A stretch of 25,098 nucleotides of DNA. Origin: a virus. This document shows positions 8,875 through 15,717 of the stretch, piece after piece. The stretch is from the UHGV virus genome UHGV-1632131, one strand, 5' to 3'. The position numbers and the translations under genes were made by a program. Positions within the stretch are counted from its first letter, which is position 1; every line of letters starts with the position of its first letter. The notes below the pieces were generated by a model, which saw nothing but the letters and a program-made list of their open reading frames with translations, did no database searches and was not told where the DNA came from.

Positions 8875-11800
8875 TTGGACAAATTACTCAATTCAATCAA
8901 TGCAGCCACCAGCATTGGTGGACTGATTGACCTTATCAGTCGGTTACATAAACCACGTGCAATCGCCGCCTTCGGCGTTAAGAAGGTAGATGGCGTCAGC
9001 ATTCAGAAGACTCGCCGGGCAGCTAATAACGCGGCAGTCAATCTTCTTAACGCTTTGCCTCCCGGTTTCGATGGCTCTCAGTTGACAGACGAACAGCGTC
9101 AGATCCTTGCAGGATACACCGGGGAAGGTGGTCTGACGGATGGCGAAGGAAGTCAGTACGAGTATTACACGCCGCAATTTATGGCAGAAGGTATCTGGGA
9201 TTTATTTTCGGATTACGGCATTGATAGCGGTCATGTTCTTGAACCGTCAGCGGGTACGGGAATTTTCCAGGAGACGAAGCGGCAGGGAATGATAATGACG
9301 AGCGCCGAATTGTCTCCGATTTCTGGTCGAATTAACCAGTTATTGCACCCGGAAGATGATGTGAATATCGGAGCGTTTGAGTCGCTTGCAGCCAAAGACG
9401 CAATGTATGACCACGCGGTGGGTAATGTGCCGTTCGGGGAAGGTCGTTCCGGTGTGGCTGGATTAGATCCTGCCTATGCGAACGAAAAGAACGTAGGTAA
9501 CTACTTTGTGCTTCGTACCATTGACAAGGTTAAACCTGGCGGACTGATCGTGCTGGTGGTGCCTAACGGCATGACCGACGGCACTAAATACAAGAAACTG
9601 CGTGACAAGGTTAGTCGTAAAGCGGAATTTCTGGGCGCACATCGTATGCCTTCCGGTACGTTCAGCGAATCCGGTACAGATACAGTTGTGGACGTATGGG
9701 TATTGCGTAAACACCCGGAAGCCTTCCTGGAGATGATCCCCGATACGGATGATGCGACGCTAAAATCGGCAAATGTCCTTTGGGATACCTTTCTGAAAGG
9801 CAAGTGGTTTACAACCGAAGGGAAGCGATTCGTTTACGGCGACATGGAACGCACCAGCTTCCGCAACACCCTGGTGGTGAAAAAGGACGGTCGTGTATCC
9901 AATGAGTCGATGAAAACCGCTCTATCGCGCCGCTTTGAAAGCCGCATTAATTGGGATTTGCTTGGCGTAACTACTCAGGCATGGCAGGGTGCCAAAGTAG
10001 GAGATAAGCGCCTTGTAGGTGGCATCTGGCACGAGTTTGATGGCCTGAAATGGGTTAAAGATGCGACAACCAAATCCTCCGTACTTGATGTAAGCCGATA
10101 TGGTGTTTCGACATTCGGTGATCTGCAAACAACGTTCCAATCAACAAACGGCATTCTGGCTCTGTCATGGGGGCAGATATCCGCGATCGCTTCCGACTAT
10201 CCATCGGTTATCAGTGATGAAGTAGCGGCAATGATTCGCTTTGCTGGGAAACAACGCGAAAAAGACCGTGAGCGCATTATGCGCGGTGCGCTGATCGGAC
10301 AACTTATCAATAAAGCGCTGGATAAGCGTAACCTTGGTGAAAACGTCGATGATGAACTGGCTGATGCCGCACGTCTGACGGCTGCCGAAGTTGCTAAATA
10401 TGGCCCACCACACGCTATTAAGCTAAACGATATTACCGAAGCGGGCGCGAAGAACTGGCTGACATTCACCGGGAACGTCAATCAGGACGGTGAAGCATCC
10501 GATCTGCTGTCCGGACGGCTTGATGTTAGCAAAGGGGCTGCTGGTATTGATTTCACTCGTCCGGAACAGGTTGTGACACACCTTTTCAGCGATGTTGCCC
10601 TTAATCCTATCAATCTTGATGACTTCCGCGAGGCGTTTAAAGGCGAACTGCCCGAAGACGACGATGAAGCACTGGAATACCTGGCGAAATTCGACGATAT
10701 CGCTATTGATGGATATGGTTGCCTGCTACCGATGGGCCGTGCCACTAGCGGTGATATTAAATCAAAAGTGGCACTGCTGGTGGGCTGGCGAGACGCGTCC
10801 ACAGGAGAGCGGAAGGCCAACTTTGAGCGCCAGCTTTCAAAAATCGAAGAGAAACGCACGTTTACACCGCTGAACAAAGTCACGGTAAACCTTAACGCAC
10901 GGTGGTTGGATCGCCGCCTGATAAAAGAGTTCCTGGCAGAGCAGGGCTATGACGAGTTTAAGTATACAGAACCCGACCTTAAGGTTGAGAACGGCATTCT
11001 GGTATCCCCGGACGATTACGAAGGTAAGGACGGGGTATTTACTGGCTACCAGCTACGAACCGTAAACGGCAAAAACGGGAACGAGTTCAAGAAAGCGAAT
11101 AACAAAGATGGCTTCCTGAATCAGCTTGAGAACTACCTGAACGGTGTTAAACCGCGCGGACAGAACGCTAACGAGTACCTGGACAAAATCGCCCAGCTTG
11201 AGACGAGTTTTAACGACTGGTTAAGAACTCACCCGCAGGCAGATCAGATCGCCCGCGATTATAACGACGCCTTTAACGGTTATATTCCATTTACCCATTC
11301 AGACGCACCCCTGGGGCTTGAAGGCATCAGCGGGAAACGTATACCGCTTTCTTACCAGAACGAAGAAGTTCGTCGTCTGTCGGAAGATGGGCGCGGGATT
11401 ATGGGATTCGGAACTGGTTTGGGTAAAACGACGACCGCGCTGGCACTGGAAGCCTATAACTTTGAAACCGGGCGAACCAAACGTACCTGTATCGTTGTTC
11501 CAAAGGCCGTATACCAGAACTGGTATCACGAGGCACAGAGCTTCTACAGTGCAGATGCCTTCGCCAATATGATGTTTATCGGTCTGGACGAAGTGCGCGA
11601 TGGTGACGGAAATATTCAGACTGCCCCAGTGCTCGACCAGGACGGCACCCCGCGACTTGATAACGACGGCAATCCGATCACCCGTAATGTTGTTAAAGAA
11701 TCCGCCAGTGCCGTTATCGCTCAACGCATGAACATGATCCCATCGTCGAACTGGCGAACGGTCATCATGACAAAAGAGCAGTTCGCATCTATCCCGTTGC

Positions 11801-14800: not shown

Positions 14801-15717
14801 GCAAGCCAAATGGAGAAGGCCTGGAAACGTACTGGCGAGGCGTGCTTTCTTTCCGCGATTTCCAGGGGCGCATGAAAGCCTTCACCAATGGTTCGGAGAT
14901 TTCGCAGATGTTCGAACAACTGCGAACGTCCAAAATCACAACCAAAATTGAGAAAACACGCATGGCGCTAAATGCATGGCGTGATGCGCTGTTTGATCAG
15001 TACAAAATGCAAAGTGATGCAGATGGTTGGGCGTCACTTGCCTCGTTGGCAGATCAGTCAGTTTACAGTGCGCAACTAAGCATTTCTAATGCCGATAATC
15101 CGCTTGAAACATCTGCAACAGTCTGGATTAAAGCGGGGGCGTTAATTCATGCATTTGAGGATAAAAGCATTACCCGTGATGATTTCGCAGATGCATATAG
15201 CTTGAATCGTCTTGTCGGGATGGCTATACGCCATGCTAACGCCTTAAAAGCGGGCGGGTATGTGGAAGATTTGCCTGATGCTCTGAAATCTGCAACGTGG
15301 GATGACTTTGTGTCGCTTAAAAATGGTGGCGCTACGGAGTCAGAGATTGCTGAACGTCTTGCGGCGGCTAAGACTGAACGGGAAGAACAGGCTGATGTAG
15401 CTGAGATCAAGGCTGACGAGGTAGCGAATGATGATTACATTATCGTGGTAAACGATAAGCCTATTCGCGCCAAAGCACGTGTACGCGGTCGCTGGTGGAG
15501 CGTAAGTGAAGACGCTGGTGCTGTTTATCTCATTGCAGATATGCCCGGATCTTCATCTATTCGCAACGCAAAAGATGCCATCAAGAAAATCGGTGGGCGT
15601 TTCTGGAACTTCGAAGTTAACCCGGTTGCCGATGTGGACTTTGACCGTCCGGCCTGGATGGTATCGACGCGCTATTCAATTGATGAAGTGCGTAAAATCA
15701 TTGAAGCGGCGGCTTAA
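8875..15717 (+). CDS. darB: DarB-like anti-restriction protein: N6-adenine methyltransferase fused to an SF2 (DExH) helicase
   Basis: 2280-aa ORF, TTG start with AAGGGG Shine-Dalgarno. Methyltransferase motifs EPSAGTG (nt 9241-9261) and GNVPFG (nt 9421-9438); helicase Walker A GFGTGLGKTT (nt 11404-11433), DEGHNY (nt 11998-12015), TATP, and motif VI QRNGRGAR (around nt 13406-13429). Architecture and size match phage P1 DarB (about 2255 aa) by established knowledge; the symbol is by analogy only. Confidence 0.65.
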   Translation: MDKLLNSINAATSIGGLIDLISRLHKPRAIAAFGVKKVDGVSIQKTRRAANNAAVNLLNALPPGFDGSQLTDEQRQILAGYTGEGGLTDGEGSQYEYYTPQFMAEGIWDLFSDYGIDSGHVLEPSAGTGIFQETKRQGMIMTSAELSPISGRINQLLHPEDDVNIGAFESLAAKDAMYDHAVGNVPFGEGRSGVAGLDPAYANEKNVGNYFVLRTIDKVKPGGLIVLVVPNGMTDGTKYKKLRDKVSRKAEFLGAHRMPSGTFSESGTDTVVDVWVLRKHPEAFLEMIPDTDDATLKSANVLWDTFLKGKWFTTEGKRFVYGDMERTSFRNTLVVKKDGRVSNESMKTALSRRFESRINWDLLGVTTQAWQGAKVGDKRLVGGIWHEFDGLKWVKDATTKSSVLDVSRYGVSTFGDLQTTFQSTNGILALSWGQISAIASDYPSVISDEVAAMIRFAGKQREKDRERIMRGALIGQLINKALDKRNLGENVDDELADAARLTAAEVAKYGPPHAIKLNDITEAGAKNWLTFTGNVNQDGEASDLLSGRLDVSKGAAGIDFTRPEQVVTHLFSDVALNPINLDDFREAFKGELPEDDDEALEYLAKFDDIAIDGYGCLLPMGRATSGDIKSKVALLVGWRDASTGERKANFERQLSKIEEKRTFTPLNKVTVNLNARWLDRRLIKEFLAEQGYDEFKYTEPDLKVENGILVSPDDYEGKDGVFTGYQLRTVNGKNGNEFKKANNKDGFLNQLENYLNGVKPRGQNANEYLDKIAQLETSFNDWLRTHPQADQIARDYNDAFNGYIPFTHSDAPLGLEGISGKRIPLSYQNEEVRRLSEDGRGIMGFGTGLGKTTTALALEAYNFETGRTKRTCIVVPKAVYQNWYHEAQSFYSADAFANMMFIGLDEVRDGDGNIQTAPVLDQDGTPRLDNDGNPITRNVVKESASAVIAQRMNMIPSSNWRTVIMTKEQFASIPLRDETIGENSQQAVFNAAEMGRLDLASGKHRDAQKKNKIKDQAANTGTAKKQNIPYFEDMNFDSVIADEGHNYRNSFGAGREAGQLAYLPNPAVSKMARDMAVKAAYMMKRHNGRGVVMLTATPLVNSPIDAFNMLSTVIPQHEWMHMGIITPDDFVRVFGKTATVQVQKISGEVEEKQGLVGFQNLDGLRGIFHRWTTLKTASDVGATVKIPDIVENTLQIPMTPEQQAAYEELRKRAQELSRGDDVTVDDEGNITRGKPDDFIFSIIRDMDKVAIDPDLYASAITFQFPVELTEQVKSIANNLPKVAGGKAADDAEEAEEDATGGLVSTRTSKVVATTFSEHPNHVELRASIDLEAEILKAIADAGIDMKQVSHPIPPKYAALIENLREGLKNGKQIIFIDEKAQHQKLRRIIASALQMSEQEIGIINATTVSQAGGVKLKKVKKPTEPTPNKDGEYKEGAWETYYSKLAQYEDYLSAKNDAGLEGMEGIAADYNEGRTRIIICNKKAEVGINLHIGTTDIHHLTLPWTPASIDQRNGRGARVGSPQEKVNVHYYCGKGTFDDFRLDTLKRKKDWIKMVMTSDMSEIANGDADDADERAIMLAANPEERRAIMARQSKEREERLRLKAQREANNALDNYLKAANAAGKDIGMMEAELKSAMEQAQRYQSDLDGLIKSGTNKNGQKYTLSALSKAKKRVRELRFAITRAKDADTVMKRSRGDVERAIKSGVLDISIDVIQNPQEYMRTGKNILLHKGSYYRAVIDAEHETTAVVRVTQIEGEKAQYTCRVAWLDRASRYSRSPGSTMTLPFDSVVEAVTFEEGVAESREIAARGVQSHQLSTSLSRDQFYDAIRSGVMRVTGKDRGGWQGAPDVNYWAYRNANGQIQMAFTYGGMIGQKISASGSDEIAPEQWIYPDVNDEALKREVAKIQTGDNPLRISEAEGFLRALFGFDYEQGMEAWGAQATMDDVVKAFDGWMAGRDLSGRSLEKVTQEDVRSLFRKPNGEGLETYWRGVLSFRDFQGRMKAFTNGSEISQMFEQLRTSKITTKIEKTRMALNAWRDALFDQYKMQSDADGWASLASLADQSVYSAQLSISNADNPLETSATVWIKAGALIHAFEDKSITRDDFADAYSLNRLVGMAIRHANALKAGGYVEDLPDALKSATWDDFVSLKNGGATESEIAERLAAAKTEREEQADVAEIKADEVANDDYIIVVNDKPIRAKARVRGRWWSVSEDAGAVYLIADMPGSSSIRNAKDAIKKIGGRFWNFEVNPVADVDFDRPAWMVSTRYSIDEVRKIIEAAA

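Follow-up and report, generated by a model that had tools for sequence, protein, structure and literature searches.

A DarB orthologue among a full set of Dar partner genes in a D6-like phage-plasmid of Shigella and Escherichia

The 25,098-nucleotide stretch of viral DNA analysed here (UHGV virus genome UHGV-1632131, hereafter the window) contains one very long gene, at 8875..15717 on the + strand, whose product combines a DNA methyltransferase with a helicase. A preliminary description of the locus, made from the sequence alone, compared this product with DarB, the antirestriction protein of phage P1, and regarded the order of the surrounding genes as a mosaic. The locus thus raises the question of whether the protein is a true DarB, expected to do what DarB does for P1, and of what to make of neighbours that are not those of P1. 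The evidence presented below indicates that the gene is very probably the DarB orthologue of a D6-like plasmid prophage and that its role probably resembles that of P1 DarB in packaging, ejection, and protection of DNA in cis.

The gene is a single intact open reading frame (ORF) of 2280 amino acids that begins with TTG and ends with TAA, and at the base composition of the window 2280 stop-free codons would occur by chance with a probability of about 1e-52. The TTG at 8875, which has a GAAGGGGA ribosome-binding site six bases upstream, is supported as the start by the alignment of the first residue with that of P1 DarB (MDKL.. versus MNKL..). The same start is called by RefSeq (PGAP) and in the GenBank record of phage D6, where darB also begins with TTG, whereas P1 darB begins with ATG. 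The ORF and all of the methyltransferase and helicase motifs quoted in the preliminary description were recovered. The N6-adenine DNA methyltransferase domain is HsdM/TaqI-like (9145..9864, + strand; Pfam N6_Mtase, residues 151-281), with motif I EPSAGTG at residues 123-129 (9241-9261) and motif IV GNVPFG at residues 183-188 (9421-9438), and its sole sequence match in the PDB is a type I restriction-modification (R-M) methyltransferase subunit (7eew_A, E 1.6e-4). It is followed by an SNF2-type ATPase/translocase of helicase superfamily 2 (SF2; 11335..13554, + strand), to which Pfam assigns SNF2-rel_dom (residues 840-946), ResIII (826-1046), and Helicase_C (1464-1520). Here the Walker A motif GFGTGLGKTT occupies residues 844-853 (11404-11433), Walker B lies in DEGHNY at residues 1042-1047 (DEGH, 11998-12009), motif III is TATP at residues 1095-1098, and motif VI is QRNGRGAR at residues 1511-1518 (13405-13428). 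A further motif near the N-terminus, LTDEQRQILAGYTGEGG (9082..9132, + strand), is nearly invariant in the window protein, D6, and P1; no Pfam model matched this region, and the motif sits where the LPD36 domain is placed in the LPD36-methylase-SNF2 module (Iyer et al., 2017; PMC5512222).

Comparison with known proteins places the gene in the DarB family. Its counterpart in phage D6, orf15 (ASR76325.1), shares 86.7% amino acid identity over the full length by BLASTP and is labelled in the D6 record (MF356679, on which all D6 comparisons rest) as “defense against restriction; similar to P1 gene darB,” the next gene being labelled “similar to P1 gene ulx.” Against P1 DarB itself (YP_006479.1, 2255 amino acids), BLASTP gives 42.9% identity between residues 1-1937 of the window protein and residues 1-1924 of P1. 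A three-way MAFFT alignment of the window, D6, and P1 proteins is colinear, with 40-68% identity to P1 up to about residue 1600. The P1 protein has the same succession of parts, namely a conserved N-terminal region, an HsdM-like adenine methylase, an SNF2 ATPase, and a long C-terminal region, and the two agree exactly in methylase motifs I and IV and in helicase motifs I, II, III, and VI, including an unusual form of motif IV (NVPF) common to both. In PHROG, phrog_1685 is matched over the full length and phrog_10089 (“DarB-like antirestriction”) is matched as well. The check by protein homology thus bears out the likeness to DarB that had been proposed.

Selection on the gene was estimated against its D6 counterpart. 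The ratio of nonsynonymous to synonymous substitution rates (dN/dS) is 0.075 overall with a synonymous divergence (dS) of about 1.1, which argues for strong long-term constraint. The methylase domain has the lowest regional dN/dS (0.014), the helicase region an intermediate one (0.046), and the C-terminal third the highest (0.11-0.13); purifying selection acts on every part of darB. These values bear on whether the gene might instead be a relic, no longer functional, in a decaying Shigella prophage. In RefSeq, darA, repL, and pacA are split in near-identical plasmids of Shigella dysenteriae (NZ_CP026816 and NZ_CP026808), and darB itself is split in one plasmid (“SNF2-related protein / N-6 DNA methylase”). 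Since such related records show split genes, some Shigella copies may be decaying; however, the splits may reflect sequencing indels, and in the window darB, darA, repL, ulx, and pacA are all intact ORFs. Together with the long-term constraint on darB, this makes a relic quite unlikely.

In P1, defence against restriction (Dar) needs six virion proteins, Hdf, DarA, DdrA, DdrB, DarB, and Ulx (PMC12810830; PMC9024508). All six are co-ejected with the DNA, and DarB, Ulx, and DdrB are required against EcoB and EcoK (PMC12810830). DarB has been found in the virion proteome, and earlier work is cited for a figure of about 40 copies per virion; of the Dar proteins DarB is added last, and its first 30 residues suffice for entry of a reporter into the capsid (PMC9024508). 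Protection by the P1 Dar system is strictly in cis, covering only the DNA of the same particle, and has also been reported against BREX/StySA (PMC12707154).

Homologues of all six components are encoded in the window, Hdf only in part. The hdf homologue is cut by the window edge, so that only its 3' end is present (1..392, + strand; 32% identical to the C-terminus of P1 Hdf), and the corresponding site in a Shigella plasmid record holds an ORF of 205 amino acids. It is followed on the same strand by homologues of darA (389..2326, 645 amino acids; Pfam DarA_N and DarA_C, 40% identical to P1 DarA), ddrA (2326..2694, 122 amino acids; 34% identical to P1 DdrA and annotated as ddrA-like in D6), and ddrB (2788..4149), a short form of 453 amino acids (Pfam ddrB-ParB) that is 64% identical to residues 2-442 of P1 DdrB and also occurs in D6. 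The sixth component, a homologue of ulx (15754..16188, + strand; 144 amino acids), starts 36 nt past the darB stop, shares 50-51% full-length identity with P1 Ulx, and matches phrog_1629 (“Ulx-like anti-restriction”). The cluster is set among head genes, including those for the portal, the protease, and a PmgS-like scaffold.

Because of this orthology, the intact motifs, the strong constraint, and the complete partner set, a role like that of P1 DarB may be assigned to the D6-type protein by analogy. The 250-kDa protein would be made late in infection, and its N-terminus would direct it, with the help of Ulx, into a prohead that already contains Hdf, DarA, DdrA, and DdrB. It would then be ejected with the DNA into the next host, where it would act in cis, shielding the DNA molecule it arrived with from type I restriction (EcoKI/EcoBI-like). 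As a fusion of an HsdM-like methyltransferase with an SNF2-type translocase, DarB could move along incoming double-stranded DNA, either methylating it or blocking or displacing the type I complexes. In the model proposed by Iyer et al. (PMC5512222), the methylase is moved over the injected DNA by the motor, and a 2025 review favours physical occlusion.

Several observations weigh against this assignment. In the BLASTP comparison with P1 DarB nothing aligned past residue 1937, which leaves out the C-terminal ~340 residues, and identity to P1 in the global alignment falls to 14-25% over the last ~680 residues. The N-terminal 30 residues (8875..8964, + strand), which are equivalent in position to the capsid-targeting signal of P1 DarB, align with it residue for residue but share only about 23% identity (about 7 of 30 residues), and a capsid-targeting function is putative here. 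The window DdrB matches only the N-terminal 442 residues of the 995-residue P1 DdrB and thus lacks the C-terminal half, a metallopeptidase proposed to process P1 DdrB. Even in P1, the mechanism “has not been defined” according to a 2024 study, which also traced the antirestriction attributed to plasmid-borne darB to an artefact caused by the Chi and EcoKI sites of the DNA and not to the protein (PMC11109961).

The C-terminal divergence is bridged by an intermediate. An exhaustive HMMER search of 1.84 billion representative proteins, with residues 1601-2280 as the query, yielded only 28 sequences, all of them DarB-sized giants or their fragments. Among them is a relative of 2280 amino acids (P0025) that can be aligned over its entire length both to the window protein (42%) and to P1 DarB (48%). 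Since P0025 aligns with both, the C-terminal third is homologous to that of P1 DarB too. By these alignments the whole window protein is homologous to P1 DarB, and its C-terminal third (13555..15714, + strand) is fast-evolving. The AlphaFold2 model of this third (mean pLDDT, the model's per-residue confidence score, 85.7) contains three long helices across residues 1602-1703, about 100 residues, in agreement with the coiled coils noted in the preliminary description. After these helices come a beta domain at residues 1720-1865, a helical domain at 1896-2181, and, at the end, a small alpha/beta domain at 2188-2279; no match to a known fold was found for the C-terminal third.

The divergence of the C-terminal region from P1 implies that the target range or the partners of the D6-type protein may differ. 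A stronger form of this idea is that the protein belongs to the DarB family of virion proteins but has a main target other than classical type I restriction, such as BREX-like or other defences, or that it is mainly an internal head or ejection protein, with the C-terminal third setting its specificity. The low identity of the last ~680 residues to P1, their status as the fastest-evolving region, the missing fold match, and the reported activity of the P1 Dar system against BREX/StySA would all fit. However, conservation with P1 extends to the catalytic core and to all partner genes, the sequence gives no pointer to another target, and fast evolution of a non-catalytic region is common among proteins engaged in arms races. 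A main target other than type I restriction is accordingly unlikely, and the P1-like role remains the preferred assignment.

The combination of a methylase with an SF2 motor is also found in host enzymes. The window protein, whose methylase is HsdM-like (compare 7eew_A), resembles type I HsdM and type III Mod-Res systems in coupling a methylase to an SF2 motor, but a Pfam scan of the window protein detected no nuclease or specificity domain, and type I and type III enzymes are borne by the host for restriction whereas DarB is borne by the phage against it. One could nevertheless suppose that the gene encodes a plasmid-borne enzyme of host defence or R-M, such as a type ISP-like enzyme or the helicase-methylase of DISARM, BREX, or Zorya. 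PADLOC does match the helicase lobes locally to DrmD, ZorD, DpdE, and BrxHII, and the methylase domain to type II methyltransferase models. These matches are short and weak (at most 42 bits, 50-200 of 2280 residues) and reflect shared SNF2 and methyltransferase folds; besides the missing nuclease and specificity domains, no partner genes of defence systems are present, the neighbouring proteins have no PADLOC match, and the gene is surrounded by head-morphogenesis and Dar genes with ulx adjoining. A host-defence enzyme is thus extremely improbable. Other DarB-like “polyvalent” proteins, of Bcep22-like, Ralstonia, and Thermus phages and of conjugative elements (Iyer et al., 2017; PMC5512222), share the LPD36-methylase-SNF2 module and a late or virion gene context with the window protein. 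They differ from it in that only their methylase and helicase cores align, at 24-33% identity, in having other added domains, and in that no Ulx or DarA partners are on record for them here.

The element that carries this gene can be named from its DNA. The whole window is 99.5% identical to circular, non-mobilizable plasmids of about 80 kb from S. dysenteriae, and phage D6 aligns to 70% of it at 82% identity. The darB region is 99.8% identical to the same S. dysenteriae plasmids, 98% identical to plasmids of Escherichia fergusonii and E. coli, and only 81% identical to D6 and to about 100 further plasmids of Escherichia, Salmonella, and Shigella; a near-full-length copy of the window darB occurs in 112 plasmid records. 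From these matches to Shigella plasmids and to D6, the window belongs to a D6-like plasmid prophage, that is, a P1-related phage-plasmid of Shigella and Escherichia. The genome of D6 was reportedly described by Gilcrease and Casjens in 2018 (Virology 515:203). DarB relatives may extend further, as a 91-kb contig of the non-Escherichia enterobacterium Rosenbergiella metrosideri (NZ_JALBCV010000011) carries, at its end, a relative whose N-terminal region is 74% identical; this suggests that elements with a close DarB relative also exist outside Escherichia, Shigella, and Salmonella.

The gene order around darB was the second point raised by the preliminary description, which gave the P1 block as ulx-darB-prt-pro. 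This agrees with the reference P1 record, in which lxc, ulx, and darB run in one direction while prt and pro, directly adjoining darB, diverge from it, and the darA operon (lydA lydB hdf darA ddrA ddrB) is found on the other strand, a further ~7 kb away. As described, the window has portal and protease genes upstream of darB, and they are on the same strand as darB. The portal gene prt (4221..5903, + strand) is 50% identical to P1 Prt at the protein level, and the prohead protease gene pro (5917..6912, + strand) is 43% identical to P1 Pro. Two genes separate them from darB, as had been stated. The one described as a helix-turn-helix gene is a repL-like lytic replication gene (7126..8121, + strand) that is 65% identical to D6 orf20 (“similar to P1 repL”) and is annotated in RefSeq as lytic replication protein / RepL; Pfam gives only a sub-threshold match to sigma-70 region 4. 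The other encodes a CHAP/TIGR02594 peptidoglycan hydrolase (8179..8685, - strand; Pfam CHAP) that is divergent from darB, is 91% identical to D6 orf16, and matches PHROG families of tail lysozymes and endolysins.

The arrangement is nevertheless not a local mosaic. D6 and the window share one gene order, darA-ddrA-ddrB-prt-pro-repL-CHAP(-)-darB-ulx-orf13-pmgM-pmgR-pmgS...lpa-pacA, in which all genes from hdf to pmgS are on one strand except for the CHAP gene on the opposite strand. A difference in this part is that D6 has icd, an antirepressor gene (ant), and orf17 between repL and the CHAP gene (8203-9331 of the D6 sequence), which are absent from the corresponding interval of the window (8122-8178). 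The order CHAP(-)/darB/ulx/VRR-NUC recurs in three further plasmids besides D6. Gene order was also surveyed in 80 IMG/VR contigs with DarB relatives whose N-terminal 120 residues are 42-100% identical to the window protein. A portal gene directly upstream and divergent, as in P1, was found in 52 of the 80, with every distant lineage included, while the layout with repL and/or CHAP(-) upstream was confined to the D6 clade (26 contigs) and a version with repL only was found in two contigs of one lineage at 63% identity. The survey suggests that the layout of P1, in which prt-pro and darB diverge, is the widespread one; the order in the window is thus the fixed and probably derived architecture of the D6 clade. 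The same survey gave the start codons of darB, assigned by alignment to the window N-terminus and therefore approximate in the most distant lineages: TTG in the 26 D6-clade loci and in seven others, GTG in 34, and ATG in 13. In an E. fergusonii relative (L005, 735-1106), an extra ORF of 123 amino acids lies between the CHAP gene and darB.

Downstream of darB, the preliminary description listed two uncharacterized small genes and a VRR-NUC nuclease as possible accessory factors. For the first small gene “uncharacterized” does not hold, since by its homology to Ulx, a helper in the packaging of DarB in P1, it corresponds to a known DarB packaging helper. The conserved darB-ulx pair was thereby overlooked, and the transcriptional order of this unit is unchanged from P1. 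After ulx the two genomes diverge, with lxc and the EcoP1 mod gene in P1 and with orf13 and pmgM in the window. The second small gene, the homologue of D6 orf13 (16191..16451, + strand; 86 amino acids), most likely starts at the ATG at 16191, 2 nt past the ulx stop, and here the earlier wording stands. No relative was found in other phages of the collection searched, so that orf13 appears specific to the D6 lineage by sequence comparison, which leaves it as the one candidate for a lineage-specific accessory of darB. A diverged form of Lxc, the product of the P1 gene following ulx, was considered and rejected, as BLASTP similarity to P1 Lxc is nil.

The VRR-NUC gene (16611..17084, + strand; Pfam VRR_NUC) encodes a homologue of PmgM, 57.8% identical to the P1 protein, and P1 pmgM is located at 79 kb, about 60 kb from darB. 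A P1 knockout study includes delta-pmgM in its strain list and describes antirestriction as unchanged in the 24 knockouts without a plaquing defect. From the identity with PmgM and the P1 knockout data, the gene opens the pmg head-morphogenesis block and is not a Dar component, contrary to the link with darB that had been suggested. In the 36-nt gap between darB and ulx there is also a small hairpin (15725-15753) with a 6-bp GC stem and a GAAA loop (GGCCTC GAAA GAGGCC), whose 3' arm holds the sole GAGG ahead of the ulx ATG.

The 5' leader of darB contains a feature of its own, a two-tier stem-loop (8820..8868, + strand) with the Shine-Dalgarno sequence (GAAGGGG) within its 3' arm. Its predicted folding energy is -27 kcal/mol (z = -4.0 versus shuffles). 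RNAalifold on 11 distinct D6-clade leaders gave a 14-bp helix with 96% of cells paired, compared with 32-61% in slid controls. Four pairs have changes on both sides, and a U-G pair, which can form on the sense strand only, is present in 11 of 11 sequences. D6 has the same stem-loop architecture with a different sequence, one lineage (L030) likewise keeps the architecture with a largely different stem sequence, and the P1 darB leader has no such hairpin. A search of Rfam returned no family match, a scan of the genome collection for leader variants found two loci only and no new variant, and a conserved motif that may be a promoter element, ACTCCATACCC, overlaps the 5' arm. The stem-loop is hence a putative cis-element and is to be taken as a lead and not as a finding.

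A tentative proposal, which we consider rather doubtful, is that translation of darB in the D6 clade is controlled by this Shine-Dalgarno-burying stem-loop together with the weak TTG start. The two would keep the methylase-translocase silent unless the helix were opened or transcription began inside it; read-through transcripts from repL would then be untranslatable and transcripts from a dedicated promoter would be translated. If true, the leader would represent an undescribed cis-regulatory element of a classic antirestriction gene. A similar ribosome-site-burying hairpin in the large GTG-start clade, which has the P1 layout, was examined and rejected: its 5' arm overlaps the invariant TTTAGAAT, which contains TAGAAT, annotated in P1 as the -10 element of PdarB, the partner in the inner stem varies without compensation, and there is no covariation support.

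Promoter candidates upstream of darB were also considered. A P1-type late promoter was rejected, as the pattern of a -22 box and a -10 element, taken from three late promoters annotated in the retrieved P1 stretch, was unmatched in any intergenic region of the window. A sigma-70 scan of the gap between the CHAP gene and darB found no promoter on the + strand. The same gap contains an imperfect direct repeat of ~60 bp (8720-8763 and 8780-8818; TGGCAGCCATATTTGTTATCC...AACCTACTCCAT and TGGGTGCCAACTTTGTTATCC...AACACACTCCAT), of which D6 and other plasmids have a single copy.

Other observations concern the element as a whole. The window contains 19 Chi sites (GCTGGTGG) versus ~0.8 expected, 13 of them on the + strand; eight lie inside darB (span 8906-15491), and P1 darB has 11. 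The P1 genome is known to be enriched in Chi (PMC11109961). A segment with tciA and tRNA genes (19716-21579) is 91% identical to phage P1 in DNA and is the sole stretch of the window that matches P1 at the megablast level, which suggests a recent exchange between the P1 and D6 lineages. Genes for tRNA-Asn, tRNA-Thr, and tRNA-Met lie on the + strand of the window (20205-20357 and 21319-21394), and the tRNA-Ser of D6 is absent. In D6 (21270-23036), ARAGORN places the tRNA genes on the strand of darB, whereas the GenBank record places them on the opposite strand, and it finds one tRNA-Met that is absent from the list in that record.

A DarB-type gene in this already sequenced phage-plasmid family is of a known kind, and both the gene order and the darB-like label are present in the D6 record. 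In RefSeq, by comparison, darB is labelled only “SNF2-related protein” and Ulx “hypothetical protein,” and the main value of the present analysis is a correct annotation. With darA, ddrA, and ddrB, the genes darB and ulx give this phage-plasmid of Shigella and Escherichia a full Dar system of the P1 type. The D6-type DarB is also a natural variant, in which the catalytic cores are conserved and the putative packaging signal and the C-terminal third have diverged, and comparing it with P1 DarB could help to show how DarB defeats type I restriction.

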